From NCBI GenBank assembly GCA_016722635.1, contig JADKIX010000003.1, positions 411,543 through 475,542 on the forward strand: 64,000 nt of DNA, written 5' to 3'. The stretch is from Rhodospirillaceae bacterium (GTDB lineage: Bacteria; Pseudomonadota; Alphaproteobacteria; JAEUKQ01). The notes under the pieces were generated by a model. That model searched no databases. It saw only the letters and a list, made by a program, of their open reading frames with translations, and was not told where the DNA came from. A program made the translations under genes and the position numbers. Positions 1 through 9,900 of the stretch are shown in pieces. Position 1 is the first letter of the stretch, and each line of letters starts with the position of its first letter.

Positions 1-897
1 AGCCGGCTTGAGGAAAAAGGCAAGGAATGGCTGAAAAAATTTGCCTATCAATCCCATGTTCCGGTGCCGTGGGGCAATTGGGAAAGTTTCAGGGAGGAAG
101 TCAAGGAACATTTAGAGAAAATTTTTGTATCGCGTGCACCACGCCGCAAGGCCAGTGGGCCAATTCATGATGAAACCATCCGTTCTACAAAAAAATTGCA
201 ATCGGATGGTGTTTCCGCCCTTCGTACTAAATTAGCTAATATTAAGGCTAAGAATGCCGACGATTTGGATAAACTTATTTTTGATACAGACCGTGGCTCC
301 AACTCCGTTTACCAGGTACTGCTGGAGAGGCTTCAACAACATGGGTGGGATAGTAAAAAGGCTTTTGTCAATGATCTTCATATGCGACGGAGAGATGGCA
401 CCGACGGCCCCGTGATTAAAACCGTACGCCTCCAAAATACGCAAAAATCCGGTATGACTGTGCGGCAAGGAATTGCTGATAATGGTGATATGGCACGGGT
501 GGATGTGTTTTGCAAAGACAAAAAATTCTATCTAGTACCCATTTACCTGAAAGATTTCACCCAAGGCATCTTACCCAACAAAGCGGCCACGGCAGGAAAA
601 GAAGAAAATGACTGGCGGGTGATTGATGATACTTATCAGTTCATCTTTAGTTTATTCAAGGATGATCTAATTTTGGTTAAAAAGAAGAAAGAACCGGAGG
701 TTTTTGGTTATTACACAGGTATGGATAGAGCTGCAGCCAGTATTAATTTTGATCAATACAACAGGGTAAAATCAGAACGAGGCTGGGGAGTTCAAAGCTT
801 GGCAATATTTAAAAAATACCAAATTGATGTTTTAGGCAATTATCATGAGGTGAAGGGGGAAAAACGTCAGCCATTCGGTAAACCAAAGGTGGCCTGA
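1..897 (+). CDS. cas9: Cas9 (type II-C), C-terminal portion only; the N-terminus lies outside the window
   Basis: The frame is open from base 1. The C-terminal 277 aa resemble the Neisseria-type Cas9 PAM-interacting tail (DVFCKDKKFYLVPIYLKDF..., ...KKYQIDVLGNYHEV). The stop overlaps the cas1 ATG by 1 nt, a typical cas9-cas1 junction. Confidence 0.85.
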   Translation, partial: SRLEEKGKEWLKKFAYQSHVPVPWGNWESFREEVKEHLEKIFVSRAPRRKASGPIHDETIRSTKKLQSDGVSALRTKLANIKAKNADDLDKLIFDTDRGSNSVYQVLLERLQQHGWDSKKAFVNDLHMRRRDGTDGPVIKTVRLQNTQKSGMTVRQGIADNGDMARVDVFCKDKKFYLVPIYLKDFTQGILPNKAATAGKEENDWRVIDDTYQFIFSLFKDDLILVKKKKEPEVFGYYTGMDRAAASINFDQYNRVKSERGWGVQSLAIFKKYQIDVLGNYHEVKGEKRQPFGKPKVA

Positions 898-1784
898 TGG
901 GATGGCGTATTATCCATATTGGCAAGGACAGCCGCCTGAGTTTCAAAAATCATCAATTGCTGTATAAACCCGCCGATGGTTCGGAAGAAGTGACCATGCC
1001 GCTTGAGGATATTGCGGTGATCATTGCAGATAATGCGGAAATAACTTTTAGCAGTTTTCTGCTGCGGGAGTTGGCCAGTCATGGCATTGCCCTTTTCACT
1101 TGTGATGCCAGCCATATCCCCAATGGCCTGTTTTTACCCTTCCATCAGCACAGTCGCTATAGTGAGATATTGAATTATCAAATAGGCTGGAGCGAGCCTT
1201 TTAAAAAAAGGGTTTGGCAAAAAATTGTTGAGCAGAAAATTTACAATCAATTTACTGTCGTGAAGAAAGTAAAGGGTTATACCAACGCGCGATTACTCAA
1301 ACTCTCCCAATCCGTCCTTTCTGGTGATCCCGATAATTGTGAGGCGCATGCCGCCCGTGAATATTGGGATTATTTATTCGCAAATTTCAGGCGCGGCCAG
1401 GAAGACATGAAAAATAAAGCCCTAAATTATGGCTATGCCATTTTACGCGGATGTGTGGCCAGAAACTTGGTTGCCAGTGGTTTTATACCGGCCCTGGGCG
1501 TGCATCATGCCAATAACCTGAATGCCTTCAATCTAGCGGATGATGTGATTGAGCCATTCCGGCCGTTTATTGATCAAATGGTATATACCGAATTCCAAGA
1601 TTTGGAACGGCATGATTTAATACCTGCCGATAAACAAAAACTGATTGCCGTGTTAACAGAATTTTGTTCGTTCCATGAGGAAAAAATAACCGTTTTAAAG
1701 GCGATTGAGCGCACGGCGGAAACCTTGCAAAAAGCCACGCGTGAGAAAGACCCAACCGTGCTGTTGCTGCCAAGCTTTATTTAA
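897..1784 (+). CDS. cas1: Cas1 integrase (type II)
   Basis: 295 aa. The N-terminus MGWRIIHIGKDSRLSF... and overall length match type II Cas1, and it sits between cas9 and cas2. Confidence 0.9.
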   Translation: MGWRIIHIGKDSRLSFKNHQLLYKPADGSEEVTMPLEDIAVIIADNAEITFSSFLLRELASHGIALFTCDASHIPNGLFLPFHQHSRYSEILNYQIGWSEPFKKRVWQKIVEQKIYNQFTVVKKVKGYTNARLLKLSQSVLSGDPDNCEAHAAREYWDYLFANFRRGQEDMKNKALNYGYAILRGCVARNLVASGFIPALGVHHANNLNAFNLADDVIEPFRPFIDQMVYTEFQDLERHDLIPADKQKLIAVLTEFCSFHEEKITVLKAIERTAETLQKATREKDPTVLLLPSFI

Positions 1785-1856
1785 ATATCCTTCATTAATT
1801 TTTTGATTTTTTTTGAGGCTATCAATAATCCCATGAACCATAAGGAAGAGAAATTT

Positions 1857-2162
1857 ATGCGGATCCTGCTGTTTTTTGATCTTCCCACCGAATCAAAATT
1901 TGAACGGAAATGTGCCAACCAATTCCGCAAATTTTTAATTAACGACGGGTATTTCATGGTGCAGTTATCGGTTTATTGCCGCATCTGCAAAGGGCAGGAT
2001 ACCGTGGATAAACATATCGGCAGGCTAAAAAACAATTTGCCCGCAAAAGGCAGTATCCGGGTGTTGGAAATTACCGATCAGCAATATGCACGCATTAAAA
2101 TTTTAGTTGGGACGCTAAAAAAAGTGGAAAAAATAGGCAAAGAACAACTGGTTTTATTCTGA
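1857..2162 (+). CDS. cas2: Cas2 (the ORF track extends to 1803; the [10 protein letters not shown] start is more likely)
   Basis: About 101 aa. The [13 protein letters not shown]... start is typical of Cas2. An AGGAAG RBS lies upstream of 1857. The array follows immediately. Confidence 0.85.
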
Positions 2163-2169
2163 TTTTTCT

Positions 2170-2209
2170 GGCACAAAAAAGCAAAAACCCCCTTATTTAT
2201 TCGGGGGTT
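2170..2209 (-). terminator. Rho-independent terminator, strong on the minus strand, between the cas2 stop and the first repeat
   Basis: GC stem AACCCCC/GGGGGTT with a loop. On the minus strand the hairpin is followed by TTTTTGCTTTTTT. This is consistent with stopping array transcription before it runs antisense into cas2. Confidence 0.6.
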
Positions 2210-2220
2210 AATGCGTTGAT

Positions 2221-3009
2221 ATTATAGAGCATCCGTGTGGAAAAGGAAGCTATAACCATTCATAATTGTCGTCAATTCGCCCGCATCTATTATAGAGCAT
2301 CCGTGTGGAAAAGGAAGCTATAACCCTATGAAAAATTATGAGCCTCAACGGTTATTATAGAGCATCCGTGTGGAAAAGGAAGCTATAACTTTAAATTATA
2401 AAGATTATAGAGCATCCGTGTGGAAAAGGAAGCTATAACTAAAGAATTATTTTGATCGAAATATATTATAGAGCATCCGTGTGGAAAAGGAAGCTATAAC
2501 AGCCTGGATGATGTCCAGCAAGCCTTAAACATTATAGAGCATCCGTGTGGAAAAGGAAGCTATAACGTTTCTGATTTAACGGTGGCCGATTGCATTATAG
2601 AGCATCCGTGTGGAAAAGGAAGCTATAACCATCATGTATTATAGGATATCCCTATATTTATATTATAGAGCATCCGTGTGGAAAAGGAAGCTATAACAGT
2701 GGTTAACTTGTCATCAATAAACACTGCGGCAATTATAGAGCATCCGTGTGGAAAAGGAAGCTATAACTTAGGCAGATTTCATACATTATAGAGCATCCGT
2801 GTGGAAAGGAAGCTATAACGCGCAAATTAGCTTGGCCGATATTATAGAGCATCCGTGTGGAAAAGGAAGCTATAACTCAAATATCTTGGCAAACGCCGCT
2901 AATAGCAATTATAGAGCATCCGTGTGGAAAAGGAAGCTATAACGGCTGTTAAGAGCCGGAAAAACATTGTCGTATTATAGAGCATCCGTGTGGAAAAGGA
3001 AGCTATAAC
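2221..3009 (-). CRISPR. CRISPR array with 13 repeats and 12 spacers. The plus-strand 36-bp repeat is ATTATAGAGCATCCGTGTGGAAAAGGAAGCTATAAC and the crRNA sense is probably the reverse complement GTTATAGCTTCCTTTTCCACACGGATGCTCTATAAT.
   Basis: Repeats sit at 2221, 2289, 2354, 2404, 2465, 2531, 2594, 2662, 2732, 2785 (35 bp, one A deleted), 2841, 2908 and 2974. Spacer lengths are 32, 29, 14, 25, 30, 27, 32, 34, 17, 21, 31 and 30. The reverse complement closely resembles the N. meningitidis II-C repeat (GTTGTAGCTCCC...CTACAAT) and ends in TATAAT. Confidence 0.95.
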
Positions 3010-3027
3010 TTATAGCGAGACCAATGT

Positions 3028-3056
3028 TTGATTTTATATCCTAAAAGTTGTATAAT
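3028..3056 (+). promoter_or_regulatory. Near-consensus sigma70 promoter TTGATT-17bp-TATAAT pointing away from the array
   Basis: TTGATT at 3028-3033, exact 17-bp spacer, TATAAT at 3051-3056. The predicted TSS is about 3063, directly upstream of the degenerate repeat / anti-repeat. Confidence 0.6.
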
Positions 3057-3062
3057 TTCTTT

Positions 3063-3207
3063 GAGTTATTGAGCCATCCAGAAAAGGAATAACCCCTGAC
3101 CTGCCCCCAAATTCTAATCCAGGAGAGAGTAGAGTGTTGCCGTGGTTATAGACGGTGGTGGTAAGACCATCAATGATTGATCAGGGGGCATGCCCCCTGA
3201 TTGGTTT
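3063..3207 (+). ncRNA. Candidate tracrRNA. The anti-repeat is at 3068-3093. The body may be interrupted by, or chimeric with, the IS remnant that begins at 3097.
   Basis: ATTGAGCCATCCAGAAAAGGAATAAC is an imperfect copy of the plus-strand repeat. It would pair with a minus-strand crRNA repeat leaving bulges, as in tracrRNA:crRNA duplexes. A promoter lies just upstream. A perfect palindrome ATCAGGGGGCATGCCCCCTGAT followed by TTGGTTTG at 3179-3207 could act as a terminator, but it lies inside the IS remnant. Confidence 0.3.
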
Positions 3208-3561
3208 GCAGGGTTTGACGGATTTTATCGTTGAGGCTTTCGGTGTAGCTGTTTGGCTGCGGCTTGCCCGGCGCGATATAATGTTAGTCGATGCTTTGCG
3301 CTGACGCTCAGATCAGAACGGCCGCGCTGGTCAGTTCCGGCCCGTTGTCAGAGATAATCACCTGGGGCTTGCCACGCATCTGTACGAGCCGATCCAGCTC
3401 ACGCACGACACGTAGCCCCGGCAGGGAAGTGTCCGCACTTTAATAATCTGTTCTTCCGTAAATCTCTTCTTCATAGGTCTGTTCTTTCTGCCCTGTCTTA
3501 AGGGCCTTGATCTATACCAGACCCTCCTCTATTTTGGACTAGTTTATTGGGGAGCAGGTCA
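3097..3561 (-). mobile_element. Decayed, internally deleted IS3-family (IS407-group-like) insertion sequence remnant with both terminal inverted repeats
   Basis: TGACCTGCCCCC at 3097-3108 and its near-perfect inverse GGGGAGCAGGTCA at 3549-3561. Between them on the minus strand are an orfA-like start MKKRFTEEQII and an orfB-like DDE C-terminal region. Local GC is about 60% against a host GC of about 42-45%. Confidence 0.7.
3170..3474 (-). pseudogene. IS3/IS407-family transposase remnant. The orfA 5' end is fused by deletion to the orfB 3' region, which carries two in-frame stops.
   Basis: Minus-strand translation gives MKKRFTEEQIIK... then ...ELDRLVQMRGKPQVIISDNGPELTSAAVLI*ASAQSID*HYIAPGKPQPNSYTESLNDKIRQ. 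The rve motifs (SDNGxEFTS, HYIAPGKPxQN..ESFNG.R) are recognisable but interrupted by TGA and TAA. Confidence 0.7.
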
Positions 3562-3826
3562 AATATCGTTCCTGAATTCGTTTCTTAATCTGCTCTTTCT
3601 CATAACGTCCTTTATAACACTTTCTTCGTCATCTAGGACAGTCGCCGAAATTTTTCATCGGGAAAGATAAGCCTAAAATTAAGATATCCTAGTTGCCTGG
3701 AACCAGAATCTTGACTATATTACAACCTGTCCGTTTTGGATCCCATATAAGAATGATCTATCGGTCACATCGTTATGGGTTTTTGAATCATTTAGAATAG
3801 GTATAATGGCTTAGATAGGATTTATC

Positions 3827-4390
3827 TTGTTTGCAGATTTGGAAGCCTGTACAGCTCTTGTCCTTAATGCCGATTTCCGGCCGCTTAGTTATTTTCCTTT
3901 ATCATTATGGTCCTGGCAAGATGCCATTAAGGCCGTTTGCCTGGAAAGGGTTCATATCCTTTGCGAATATGACCGCTATGTCAGCAGCGCGACCCTCCGC
4001 ATGAAAATCCCCAGCGTCATTGCTTTAAGGGAATTTATCCCCCTATCCCGCAAGCCAGCTTTTACCAGATTTAACGTATTCTTGCGCGATTGTTTCACCT
4101 GCCAATATTGCGGCACTCCCCATAAGGCCGCAGAACTGACCTTTGATCATGTCATACCTAGGTCAAGAGGGGGAAGAACCAATTGGGATAATGTGGCAAC
4201 CGCTTGCCAAACCTGCAATATGAAGAAAGGCAACAATCTGCCAGAGGTAAGTAGGATGATCCCGCTGCGCTATCCCAAAGAACCAAGCAGTTGGGAATTA
4301 CAAGAACAGGGGCGTTTTTTTCCGCCCCATCACCTGCACCAAAGTTGGCGGGACTTTTTATATTGGGACAGCGAACTCGAAGAAAGCTAA
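3827..4390 (+). CDS. HNH endonuclease family protein (TTG start at 3827; exact start uncertain)
   Basis: HNH motif CQYCG...DHVIPRSRGG..NWDNVATACQTCNMKKGN. It is about 187 aa, the conserved alphaproteobacterial small-HNH architecture. Confidence 0.75.
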   Translation: MFADLEACTALVLNADFRPLSYFPLSLWSWQDAIKAVCLERVHILCEYDRYVSSATLRMKIPSVIALREFIPLSRKPAFTRFNVFLRDCFTCQYCGTPHKAAELTFDHVIPRSRGGRTNWDNVATACQTCNMKKGNNLPEVSRMIPLRYPKEPSSWELQEQGRFFPPHHLHQSWRDFLYWDSELEES

Positions 4391-4941
4391 ACTTTCTTTG
4401 ACAGCCAAATTGCTGTTCTGGTCAAGGCCTGAATGGCTGTTTTCAAAACAGGATAGGCAGGCGCCTCATTTGCCTTATTTGCAAGGGCGGTATCGCGGTG
4501 ATGGCATTCATCTTCCCGGCATTCGGCAATAACCGCCTTTAAAGAAGATTGGTTGGGGGGTAATTTTGCCAATTGTTCCTGATAATGCCGGTCAATTACT
4601 TCCTCAACTGCCACGGTACAAGCCATCGCGGCCTTAACCCCCATTGCTGCAGTGATGACCCCCAATCCATAGCCAGCCATATGCCAAATCGGATGCAACA
4701 AGGTTGGACGGACTTTTTCTTGCCGCAATAATTGATTGAAAATATCCAAATGCTTTTGCTCTTGTTGCAACATGTTTTGCACAAGGGCAACCGTAGGGGT
4801 ATCCTTGAGCACAGCCAATTGCCCTTGGTAAATACGGATCGCCCCATATTCCCCCGCCTGATTGACGCGCAAGGCCTGATGCAGGCTTTCCTGCTCACTT
4901 AAATCACCCGGCAAGGGGGGATGGTAGGCATCATTAAACAT
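4387..4941 (-). CDS. coq7: Demethoxyubiquinone hydroxylase (Coq7 family)
   Basis: VNQAGEYGAIRIYQGQ and di-iron carboxylate motifs. Length 184 aa. Confidence 0.8.
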   Translation of the reverse strand: MFNDAYHPPLPGDLSEQESLHQALRVNQAGEYGAIRIYQGQLAVLKDTPTVALVQNMLQQEQKHLDIFNQLLRQEKVRPTLLHPIWHMAGYGLGVITAAMGVKAAMACTVAVEEVIDRHYQEQLAKLPPNQSSLKAVIAECREDECHHRDTALANKANEAPAYPVLKTAIQALTRTAIWLSKKV

Positions 4942-6100: not shown

Positions 6101-6928
6101 TTATTCGCTAACCCTGTTTTCTAAATCGCCAATATGGCTGATAGTGATTTTTATATGGTCGCCCGCCCGCAGGAAGCGCGGCGGATTAAAGCCCATGCCA
6201 ACGCCTGCCGGTGTGCCGGTCGCGATGATATCGCCCGGCTGCAAGGTGATTCCCGCAGCCAAGGTAACGATTAAGCTTGGGATATTAAAAATCATTTTTG
6301 AAATGCTGCTTTCCTGACGTAATTCCCCGTTGACCCAACATTTAATTGTTAAGTCTTGCTGGCCAATTTCTTCTTTGGTAACAATCCAAGGACCCATGGG
6401 CAGGAAAGTATCCAGGGATTTCCCCAGGAACCATTGTTGATGGCGTTTTTGGATATCCCGCGCTGTCACATCATTAGCAATCATATAGCCGAAAATATGC
6501 TCATCCGCTTGCGCCAGGGTAATATTTTTGGCCGTTTTGCCAATAACCACCGCTAGTTCTGCCTCATAATCGATTTTTGAGCTTAAATATTTCGGCAATT
6601 TGATGGATTGGTTGGGCCCAATAATACAATTATCTGCCTTGGTAAAAAAAATAGGGTATTCGGGGACAGCATCCCCGCTGACAGCTGTTTGGCTGACTTC
6701 CTTCAAATGCTCGTGGTAGTTTTTCCCCACACAAAACACATTGCGGCCAGGTTTGGGGATGGGCGCTAACAGCGTGATTTGGCTAAAAGGGATCGATGGC
6801 GCTTCAAAAGATGTTTTTTGCTTGATAATATCCATCATATCGAACGCCAACGGCTTAACGGTTTGTTGTCCTAAATCAACAGCCCCGGCCAATTGCTGAC
6901 CTTGGTATAAGAAAGTCGCATACTTCAA
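6101..6928 (-). CDS. Fumarylacetoacetate hydrolase (FAH) family protein
   Basis: 275 aa. FAH-fold motifs (GKNYHEH, DYEAELAVVIGK, GDIIATGTPAGVG). Confidence 0.75.
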   Translation of the reverse strand: MKYATFLYQGQQLAGAVDLGQQTVKPLAFDMMDIIKQKTSFEAPSIPFSQITLLAPIPKPGRNVFCVGKNYHEHLKEVSQTAVSGDAVPEYPIFFTKADNCIIGPNQSIKLPKYLSSKIDYEAELAVVIGKTAKNITLAQADEHIFGYMIANDVTARDIQKRHQQWFLGKSLDTFLPMGPWIVTKEEIGQQDLTIKCWVNGELRQESSISKMIFNIPSLIVTLAAGITLQPGDIIATGTPAGVGMGFNPPRFLRAGDHIKITISHIGDLENRVSE

Positions 6929-6937
6929 GTGAACCCC

Positions 6938-9900
6938 CTAAACTTTTGCCGTCGTAGCGGGCCGTAAACCCAATTGTTTCAAAGAATGATCAACCCATAA
7001 AGCGGTTAATTTTTCTTGCAAGGAATTTTGCGATAGACGCCCGGATAATACTCCCCAATCCACATGATCGAGTGGTTGGTCTTGGTTGCTACAAGAAAAT
7101 ACCACTGTTTCTTTACCGGTTACCGGATCACGGTGGGTTTGCAAACATTGGGCACAGATTTCTTTCATCATACATTGCATCGGCGAATTGATGGAACCGA
7201 TGGCTTGATGGTTTTTTGAAATAAAGGGCGCCAGAATTCCGTGCCGCGCCCGGGCAACCGCCGCCATCATCCGGTCGGAACCAATGGCAATCAGCCGGTC
7301 GGTTTCCTTCATCGACAAGACCGGTGTGCCAAGACGGCCGCTGGCATAGGCCGCCATCGCTTCCACAATATTACCCACAAAACTTTTATCTTGCGGCCTT
7401 TCTGGCAAAAATCCCGGAGCTTCATCACAACACCACACCACAACATCTGCCGCGGCTTCAATTTGCTCGATCTTGTAACGGTCTTGGCGTTTTTTATATC
7501 CGGCAAAATACAAAACTTTGGTGCCAGCGGCGCGCAAGGCTGCGCCAATTGAAAACAATACCGCATTGCCAAGCCCCCCGCCCACCAAGACCGCCAGTCG
7601 TTCGGTAACAATTTCTGTAGGCGTGCCGGTTGGCCCCATGAGGACGACTTGTTCGCCCGGTTGCAGATGGGCGCATAAATCAGAAGACCCCCCCATTTCT
7701 AGGGCAATAACGGCAATCAGGCCTTTTTCGATATCCGTCCAAGCGCCCGTCATCGCCAATCCCTCCATCGCGAGTAAAGTATGGTTGGTGTATTTGGCAT
7801 AATTTTCATAATTCTGCAGGCGGTAAAACTGACCGGGCTTGAACGAGGATGCAGCCTGTGGGGCTTTTAGCACCACTTCCACAATATTTGGGGTCAACCG
7901 GTTGACGGCATGGACAATTGCCGGTAACTGCTGATTGAGTTGCTGCACCAAATCTTTCGCGGAAACGGTCGTTGGCAGGCGCTTCGATAAAATACGGCTG
8001 ACCACCGGATATCCCTGCTTGGCGCTGCCCATAGCTTTCACCACATTCCCAAAAAAAGACGGATGCAGGTCGCCAAAGAAACTGATAAACCGGCCGTCAG
8101 GATACCGTGACATCAGCATTTCGGGGACGGGTGGTTTGGCAAGCGCTTGAACCGGCTTAACCGGCAGGCCATTTGCATCAATGGCTTGGAAATAACGCCC
8201 TTCAACCTTAATGATATCGCTTTCTTCCTTGGCCAAGGTGGTATTCGGTTGGGTTCCGGCTGCAATTAAAATGCTGCGCGCAGGCAATATCTTTTCGCTA
8301 ACCCTCCCTTGTTGCTCCACTTTCACCCTTAAACCTTTGACGGCTTGGTATTCATCAACCTCAACCGCCAGCGGGGTCACCCCTTCGGCAAATTGGATCC
8401 CCTCCTCCATGGCAATCGCCACTTCCTCATGATTCAAGGTATAACTGGGGGCCTCTATCAATTGGCGCCGATAAGCAACCGTTACGCCCCCCCATGATTC
8501 AATCAAAGACTGAAATTTTGGTAACCTGTCTTGTTTTTTGGCAGCCACACGCTCAGCACGAATGGCTGCCGCATGGGATAGGAATTCTTGGGAAACAATG
8601 GCTTCTTCTGCCGTCCAGTTTTTGCGGACGGTTGTTTCCCCCAACTTGCCCACCAATATTTGGTAACGTTCGGCAAATTTCTCCACCTGCCGTACATAAT
8701 AAGCCATAGCTTCCGTAGCCGTATCAATGGCGGTCAAACCGCCACCGATCACGACGACCGGCAAGCGCAGTTGTAAATTGGCAATAGATTCATGACGGGC
8801 AGCACCCGTCAACTGCAAAGCCATTAAAAAGTCCGAAGCCATCCGCACCCCTTTCGCCAAGGCATAGGGCATCGGAATATTGGTTGGACGACCAGCGCCC
8901 GCACATAAAGCAATATGATCAAAACCTAAATTCATGGCAGCTTCTATGGTGATGGTGCCGCCAAAACGTACCCCGCCAAACAGGCTGAAATGCTCACGCC
9001 TTTCCAAAAGCAGGCGGATGATTTTTAAAAAATTCTTATTCCAACGGACGGTGATCCCATACTCAGCAACCCCGCCAAATCCCGCCAACACCCTTTTATC
9101 AAGATCTTCCTCAAGCACTTTATAATCCTGGATGGGTTCGAAAGAAATGCGCTGACCGTTATGTTGAATGCCGGATAAATTCGGCGACAGCGGTTCAATT
9201 TTCAACCCATCAACGGCCACAATGCTATGGCCATCATTCATCAGATGATGGGCAAGGGTAAAACCGGCAGGCCCCATCCCCACCACCAGTATTTTATACC
9301 CGCTCTCCGGCTTTGGCAAAGGCCGCCTGATATTTAAGGGATTCCACCGCGTTAATAAACTGTAAATTTCAAAGCCCCAGGGCAATTCCAAAACATCCTT
9401 TAAAACCCGGGTTTCCACCTGGGGGATATTGACCGGTTCTTGTTTTTGATAAATGCAGCTTTTCATGCAGTCATTGCAAATACGGTGGCCGGTTGCCGCC
9501 AGCATGGGGTTATCCACCACCGCAACCGCTAACGCTGCAACAGCGTAGCCTTGGGTTTTCAAGCTGTGCATTTCAGATATTTTTTCTTCCAAAGGGCAGC
9601 CCGTCAGGGTAACCCCGAATACGGATTTCTGAAATTCACCGGTTTTGCGGTCTCTTAACCCCTTGGAACAGGAATCTTTCCCCTGATCGTGACAAAGGAT
9701 GCAATAATGGGCTTCATCTAAAGCATGCTTTAAATCAGCACCTACATCCGTTAAAGAAAAACCATCCCGTGACCGATGTTTAGATGGCGGCAAGCGCAGC
9801 ATGCGCACCCCGTCCTTTTCTATCACATCCAGGGGGATCAGATGCTGGTGATCTAATTTATGAGGCTGATGAAATAAAATACCTTTTTGGTGACGTTTTT

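Follow-up and report, generated by a model that had tools for sequence, protein, structure and literature searches.

A Neisseria-type II-C CRISPR-Cas9 locus in an uncultured alphaproteobacterium, with an inverted array and putative promoters inside its repeats

In Neisseria meningitidis and Campylobacter jejuni, the CRISPR arrays (clusters of regularly interspaced short palindromic repeats) are read in the direction opposite to the cas genes (PMC3737331), and CRISPR RNAs (crRNAs) are produced from promoters that lie inside the repeats (PMC5965381). Does the type II-C CRISPR-Cas9 locus at the start of a 64,000-nucleotide (nt) stretch of DNA from a Rhodospirillaceae bacterium (contig JADKIX010000003.1, positions 411,543 to 475,542; hereafter the window) work in the same way? 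An initial annotation, made from the letters of the window, proposed that it does, pointing to a TATAAT embedded in every repeat and to a terminator between the array and cas2. Having followed this up by comparison with related loci, we consider it quite probable that the locus is a functional Neisseria-type II-C CRISPR-Cas9 of an uncultured alphaproteobacterium that also uses the Neisseria-like mode of transcription from repeat promoters. It is a previously uncharacterised locus of known design, with no new mechanism.

The window begins inside cas9, of which it holds the last 298 of 1063 codons (1-897, plus strand), including the PAM-interacting domain (Pfam CjCas9_PI_CTD, E 3e-6; PAM, protospacer adjacent motif). 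The start of cas1 (897-1784, plus strand; 295 amino acids; PF01867, E 2e-24) overlaps the cas9 stop by 1 nt, and its product is exactly the protein MBL0338017.1 from a Rhodospirillaceae bacterium metagenome-assembled genome (MAG). Next on the plus strand is cas2 (PF09827, E 3e-16), which ends at 2162 and encodes 109 amino acids from the ATG at 1833 or 101 from the ATG at 1857. An exact look-up of the Cas1 protein led to six sister contigs of other samples which, apart from the array, match the window at 99-100% identity; their cas2 gene calls are of 101 or 109 amino acids. The complete cas9 is present on sister contigs L001-L004 with its HNH_4, RuvC_III and Cas9_RuvC domains, so that the reading frame that the initial annotation could see only at its C-terminus is indeed a full-length Cas9 of 1063 amino acids. 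Both in the window and on contigs L001-L013, the gene content is cas9, cas1 and cas2 alone, without csn2 or cas4, and a cas operon made up of these three genes only is what defines type II-C (PMC3737331). That class had been proposed from the outset, and it is borne out by the gene content as well as by the best matches of the Cas9 in the PDB, which are Nme1Cas9 and Nme2Cas9 (E ~1e-196), together with other Cas9 chains of 1055-1095 amino acids.

This Cas9 is nonetheless some distance from the enzymes it resembles. In a collection of 5.8 billion proteins we found only five close relatives (P0001-P0005, 63-89% identity); the next are at most 44% identical, and the Cas9s of Neisseria and Geobacillus stand at 36-38%. 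The invariant residues in an alignment of the related Cas9s include D8, D606/H607 and N630, which we take to be the catalytic residues of the RuvC and HNH domains. Because the alignment to the Nme structures is good over residues 3-799 only, the PAM-interacting part is divergent from them. The comparison of this part with NmeCas9 that had been called for gave a poor alignment to the Nme structures. An alphaproteobacterial origin, which had also been suggested, fits the names of the sources: the window's own proteins are deposited under a Rhodospirillaceae bacterium MAG, and the GTDB set has relatives that go by the names 'Alphaproteobacteria bacterium MAG-99', 'uncultured Rickettsiales bacterium' and 'Alphaproteobacteria bacterium UBA8987'.

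The direction in which the array is read can be judged independently of any TATAAT, from the trans-activating CRISPR RNA (tracrRNA). The initial annotation had remarked that cas9 overlaps cas1 with no tracrRNA gene in between; this is correct, and the gene instead lies outside the window, some 2.4 kb ahead of its position 1, on the minus strand upstream of cas9 and divergent from it (L001:6576-6800, with the tracrRNA itself at 6576-6740). It is conserved in seven related lineages, those with an available upstream region (contigs L001, L007, L008, L009, L011, L012, L013 and L015), in each of which it is preceded by a promoter of the form TTGAC(T/A)-16-TAnnAT. Its anti-repeat, CUUAUAGAUUAUCCGUGUGGAAAUGGUUGCUAUAAU in the window's species, co-varies with the local repeat, and the hairpin of its tail, here AAGAAGAAAUUCGUGGGUUCCUCCCGCCGCAAGGCGGGAUACCC, shows four compensatory pairs. 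The duplex between anti-repeat and minus-strand repeat, which spans nearly the entire crRNA repeat, has a predicted energy of -43.8 kcal/mol, compared with a mean of -10.5 and a best value of -23.1 for shuffled sequences, and the anti-repeat is complementary solely to the minus-strand reading of the repeat. Since it pairs with that strand only, the crRNAs would almost certainly be read from the minus strand, toward cas2, as had been predicted; the same complementarity places the array in the orientation opposite to the cas operon. A second copy of the tracrRNA was sought across the window and none was found, and an Rfam search of positions 1-4500 returned no known RNA family, even at E <= 1. 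The tracrRNA promoter lies within ~70 nt of the cas9 start codon, and the leader of the cas9 mRNA and this promoter therefore overlap on opposite strands, an arrangement from which coupled regulation of cas9 and tracrRNA might possibly arise.

The array itself occupies positions 2221-3009, with 13 repeats and 12 spacers, its crRNA sense on the minus strand by the complementarity just described. On the plus strand the 36-nt repeat reads ATTATAGAGCATCCGTGTGGAAAAGGAAGCTATAAC, and 12 of the 13 copies are exact, the other (2785-2819) being a 35-nt copy that has lost one A. Its reverse complement, GTTATAGCTTCCTTTTCCACACGGATGCTCTATAAT, ends in TATAAT; in plus-strand coordinates this hexamer covers the opening six positions of every unit (2221-2226, 2289-2294 and so on). 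Against the repeat of Neisseria animalis (L018), 21 of 36 positions are equal by hand count, concentrated in the first 13 nt and in the terminal TAnAAT. The Neisseria-like repeat with a terminal TATAAT in every unit that the initial annotation described is confirmed, and the other elements that it listed also stand at the coordinates given. Beyond repeat 13, at the cas2-distal and old end of the array, a gap of 54 nt (3010-3063) leads to a degenerate terminal repeat (3064-3093, minus strand), which can be read directly from the sequence. It is identical in L001, and the flank from 3010 onward also occurs in L025 and L026; the lineages of L011 and L012, whose far-end flanks we compared, do not have it.

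Is the TATAAT a promoter element? Its 13 copies are one repeat duplicated and so do not count as independent evidence; the independent part is its conservation across the repeat variants of relatives, which differ by 1-6 nt within the clade. In five such variants the four positions 5' of the hexamer differ (GCTC, GCGC, AGTC, GTTC and ATGC), and all five end in TATAAT, except for a TATAGT that follows a correctly spaced TGn in L013 and L007. Four other, more distant II-C loci with inverted arrays have repeats ending in TGTTACAAT (N. animalis, L018), TTGTATAAT (L019), TGCTATAAT (L022) and TGCTATACT (L021), with terminal hexamers TACAAT, TATAAT or TATACT, and the promoter-critical T-A...T is kept in the terminal hexamer of every inverted array examined. 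In the only co-oriented array examined (L020), by contrast, the repeat ends in CATTAAC, and a TATAAT sits in the leader instead. The two ends of the repeat are near-inverted copies of each other (GTTATAG and CTATAAT), and the opposite end, which on the plus strand gives TATAAC or TACAAC, lacks the closing T of a -10 element.

The array could alternatively be transcribed as one long minus-strand pre-crRNA from a promoter beyond the far end, or by read-through from there, and be processed by tracrRNA and RNase III, in which case the TATAAT would not be a working promoter. Candidate sources would be the insertion sequence (IS) remnant beyond the array here or the tRNA gene beside the L012 array, and the IS remnant of the window and the tRNA of L012 and L016 are both directed at the array; a near full-length duplex of repeat and anti-repeat would also be a good RNase III substrate, and the window's repeat has neither a well-spaced TGn nor a -35 element. 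The cas2-distal flanks, however, are unrelated between lineages, and a simple sigma-70 scan for a minus-strand promoter-like site at 3010-3900 found none, which argues that there is no conserved external promoter for the array. The T-A...T hexamer, kept in all inverted arrays examined and absent in the co-oriented L020, also speaks against a long transcript, as do the precedents for repeat promoters in Neisseria and Campylobacter (PMC5965381, PMC12477760). We regard such a transcript as rather improbable.

Repeat-embedded promoters remain our best reading, by analogy with Neisseria and by conservation, and we think it likely that they would be the main source of crRNA, with somewhat less assurance than we have for the locus as a whole. 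Several points weigh against this. The window's repeat reads TGCTC-TATAAT, with the TG at -17/-16, 2 nt too far upstream for an extended -10, whereas L013, L018, L021 and L022 have a correctly spaced TGn before the hexamer. The best -35-like hexamer matches at 2/6 positions, the simple sigma-70 scan made no call on the repeat's TATAAT, and by Escherichia coli rules the promoter would be weak. It is also possible that conservation of the repeat end could serve pairing with the tracrRNA or recognition by the Cas1-Cas2 integrase, and the firing of each TATAAT is the step that we infer, each copy being a putative promoter.

If the repeats do fire, the terminal -10 hexamer of each (TATAAT) would start a short crRNA ~6-7 nt into the next spacer. 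In Neisseria it is from the 6th nt of each spacer that crRNAs start, and new spacers are acquired at the leader end (PMC12477760). A 30-nt spacer would in this way yield a guide of ~24 nt followed by the repeat, and the 3' end of the crRNA might be trimmed by tracrRNA and RNase III. Transcripts from the repeats nearest to cas2, including a useless one from the last repeat, would run on in the direction of cas2, and would be halted by a hairpin and T-run before they entered the gene antisense.

Such a hairpin does exist. On the minus strand, a predicted intrinsic terminator (2172-2209) separates cas2 from the array and stands 11 nt away from repeat 1. It has a 7-bp G+C stem formed by AACCCCC (2186-2192) and GGGGGTT (2203-2209), a 10-nt loop, and a T-run at 2185-2172. 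The minus strand after the stem reads UUUUUGCUUUUUUG, and the plus strand reads AATGCGTTG. The fold energy is -18.3 kcal/mol (z = -3.6 against shuffles), and a simple terminator scan missed the hairpin (2186-2209) solely because its loop exceeds 8 nt. Six lineages retain the hairpin and its T-run, with compensatory changes at two pairs, and comparable hairpins stand between cas2 and array in N. animalis, L019 and L022. The minus-strand terminator that the initial annotation placed between repeat 1 and cas2 is therefore real.

What this hairpin does is less clear-cut, and here too there are points against an antisense barrier: the hairpin could just as well terminate the cas operon in both directions, or act in the leader when spacers are integrated. 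It directly follows the cas2 stop, and its distance to repeat 1 is nearly constant (10 nt in L011, 11 nt in the other five lineages), which speaks for an element that ends the operon or positions Cas1-Cas2 at the first repeat; acquisition in Neisseria, moreover, requires leader-adjacent sequence (PMC12477760). The T-run, on the other hand, is found on the minus strand only, and either role is compatible with antisense termination. That operon-end or leader function is the main one, in place of a barrier, seems to us a possibility to be taken seriously, though a minority one. Termination of array transcripts is the simplest reading of the hairpin, and a role as leader or operon end is additionally possible.

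The spacers of the window pose a separate problem, since their lengths (2257-2973) are irregular: 32, 29, 14, 25, 30, 27, 32, 34, 17, 21, 31 and 30 nt. On short-read contigs of the same species and of relatives, 30 of 30 spacers are exactly 30 nt, and L025 and L026 add more complete spacers, again of exactly this length. The irregularity might be real, reflecting an array in decay or a regulatory array with truncated guides; only two of the 12 spacers are 30 nt long, and outside the array the window has no indels relative to its sister contigs. Yet the cas genes are intact, and individual spacers look like corrupted 30-nt originals. Spacer 12 (2944-2973) recurs without change as the last spacer of L026, an independent contig. 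Spacer 11 looks scrambled and rich in indels when set against its 30-nt positional counterpart in L026 (equalled by 6 of 2000 shuffles), and spacer 1 agrees with a 30-nt site on a phage contig (L017:834-863, minus strand) over 15 nt exactly, with the remainder gapped (0 of 200 shuffles). Because of this pattern, and because the source contig is 557 kb long, which suggests a long-read assembly, the irregular spacers of 14-34 nt most likely arose as a consensus artefact when an array that varies between strains was assembled, and most of the spacers in this record would then be unreliable. A biological origin of the odd lengths we hold to be improbable, and we dropped it in view of the 30-nt norm in relatives, the scrambled spacer 11 and the gapped spacer 1.

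The spacers are still informative about acquisition. Those next to cas2 differ in each sample, while spacer 12 at the far end is shared with L026; this distribution fits acquisition beside cas2, where new spacers would be inserted at the cas2-proximal end and the far end would keep the old spacers and the degenerate repeat. Spacer 1 of the sister array on L001 matches an IMG/VR phage contig at 30 of 30 positions (L017:9538-9567, plus strand), and from this match it follows that the system takes spacers from phage; it was the single match in exact scans of viral contigs. BLAST comparison of the window's own array with phage and plasmid collections gave chance-level matches only, and comparison of its spacers with the window sequence revealed no self-target. 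The flanks 3' of the two protospacers could be retrieved (TTCACATAATTA for L017:9538-9567 and CGAACGATATTG for L017:834-863); with one perfect and one partial protospacer, and with A4 and C5 as the only common bases, they do not amount to a PAM call. The phage contig (UViG_3300020036_000706), which encodes a 540-amino-acid open reading frame at 7306-8928, is matched from two arrays of this species and is likely to be a natural phage of the bacterium.

Just beyond the array, the promoter and terminator scan brought up a second small-RNA candidate on the plus strand (candidate B; 3028-3207). It is made up of a sigma-70-like promoter, TTGATT-17-TATAAT (3028-3056; 10 of 12 positions matching), with a predicted start at ~3063, a degenerate anti-repeat-like 5' end, and a hairpin (3178-3203) with a T-rich tail. 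As a tracrRNA, candidate B (3063-3207) is ruled out by the conserved tracrRNA upstream of cas9, and further by its weak duplex with the crRNA repeat, its absence from L011 and L012, a tail that belongs to an IS remnant, and an unremarkable fold (z = -2.0).

It might still be asked whether candidate B works with Cas9 as an additional tracrRNA or as a small RNA of the scaRNA type. In N. meningitidis, a sigma-70 promoter drives NMnc0040/scaRNA in the direction opposite to the array, up to a terminator (PMC5449619; PMC13431127). Candidate B lies at the equivalent end of the array and in the same opposite orientation, its promoter stands right before the degenerate anti-repeat with a T-tailed hairpin 120 nt further on, and its pairing with the crRNA repeat (-22.4 kcal/mol) is barely past the best of 500 shuffles, compared with -43.8 for the true tracrRNA. 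But it was not found in L011 or L012, the nearest lineages for which the far-end flank is known; its origin is a repeat, not the tracrRNA; the 3' half with the supposed terminator sits in an IS3-type transposase pseudogene; and in N. animalis the promoter-like site comes after the degenerate repeat and not before it. We therefore think such a role improbable, and think it more improbable still that candidate B would be transcribed into a small RNA able to bind Cas9 or crRNA, as a counterpart of Neisseria scaRNA/NMnc0040. Were it true, a piece of an IS and the decayed repeat at the array's end would have been joined here into a small RNA. Candidate B and the Neisseria RNA have in common their place at this end of the array, an orientation against it, a promoter of the sigma-70 type and a hairpin that resembles a terminator; candidate B differs in being confined to one species and in overlapping an IS remnant, and the likeness is one of position.

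That remnant, of an IS3-family transposase (3150-3440, minus strand; integrase core, Pfam rve_3 and rve), has in-frame stops in its translation and a G+C content above that of its surroundings, and borders the CRISPR locus without being part of it. Within it lies the palindrome ATCAGGGGGCATGCCCCCTGAT, which the scan picked out as a terminator-like hairpin (stem 3184-3198). At the start of two short-read contigs (L027:1-100 and L029:1-60) stands a long, perfect palindrome with the GGGGGCATGCCCCC hairpin (window ~3184-3197) at its centre, probably an assembly artefact of contig ends. Also adjoining the CRISPR locus is a stand-alone HNH endonuclease gene (3827-4390, plus strand; 187 amino acids; HNH_5/HNH), which is kept in the sister contigs of the same species and is unlinked to cas in other lineages.

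What, then, does this locus add? It leaves the understanding of how such systems work unchanged; its value lies in the full anatomy of the locus, in the site and sequence of the tracrRNA, and in comparative support for the repeat promoter and the terminator. It would extend the Neisseria-type II-C design, with its divergent tracrRNA, inverted array, repeat-internal -10 hexamer and terminator guarding cas2, to a small clade of uncultured alphaproteobacteria from environmental metagenomes. The comparison also suggests a rule for wider checking, namely that, among the II-C loci examined, every inverted array has a terminal -10-like hexamer and a cas2-side hairpin, and the single co-oriented array does not. 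The compact Cas9 of 1063 amino acids, ~37% identical to characterised enzymes, could together with its crRNA and tracrRNA be a candidate genome-editing tool, possibly with a new PAM.

Among the closest relatives (P0001-P0005 and the MAGs described above), the design of the locus, the tracrRNA family and the hairpin are the same, whereas genomic neighbourhoods differ, the L007 lineage retains a solo repeat only, and L016 is without cas genes. In this last, related strain, a solo repeat alone stands between the sequence upstream of the tracrRNA and the L012-type tRNA flank (L016:5250-5700), and the entire cassette of tracrRNA, cas9, cas1, cas2 and array is missing, having been either lost or never gained; a scan of metagenomes with the exact repeat found nothing beyond this solo-repeat strain. 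In a Rickettsiales MAG (L009:645-5833) the cas9 locus directly follows integrase, Prim-Pol and PriCT_2/AAA_25 genes, which suggests that the CRISPR cassette there may lie beside or within a mobile element.

The two systems to which the locus invites comparison are the type II-C CRISPR-Cas9 of N. meningitidis (the Nme1Cas9 locus), reportedly described by Zhang et al. in 2013, and the type II-C locus of C. jejuni, said to have been described by Dugar et al. in the same year. We made the Neisseria comparison directly with the N. animalis locus (L018). Shared with Neisseria are a minus-strand tracrRNA upstream of cas9, the order cas9-cas1-cas2, the hairpin, and an array read toward cas2; the 36-nt repeats and 30-nt spacers, with a repeat that has GTTnTAGCT.CC at its start and a -10-like TAnAAT at its end; and an acquisition end beside cas2 and an AAUAAG after the anti-repeat of the tracrRNA. 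The differences lie in the Cas9, which is ~37% identical and whose PAM-interacting domain aligns poorly (best stretch 3-799), in the hexamer, which has the consensus TATAAT without a TGn where N. animalis has a TGn (TGTTACAAT), and in the host, an uncultured alphaproteobacterium. With C. jejuni the locus shares an array opposite to the cas operon and, by our reading of the repeats, the repeat promoters that have been described there (PMC5965381; PMC3737331). The C-terminus of its Cas9 also falls in the CjCas9 PI-CTD Pfam family, whereas the CjCas9 chain in the PDB, 5x2g, matches weakly and only in part (E 8e-87).

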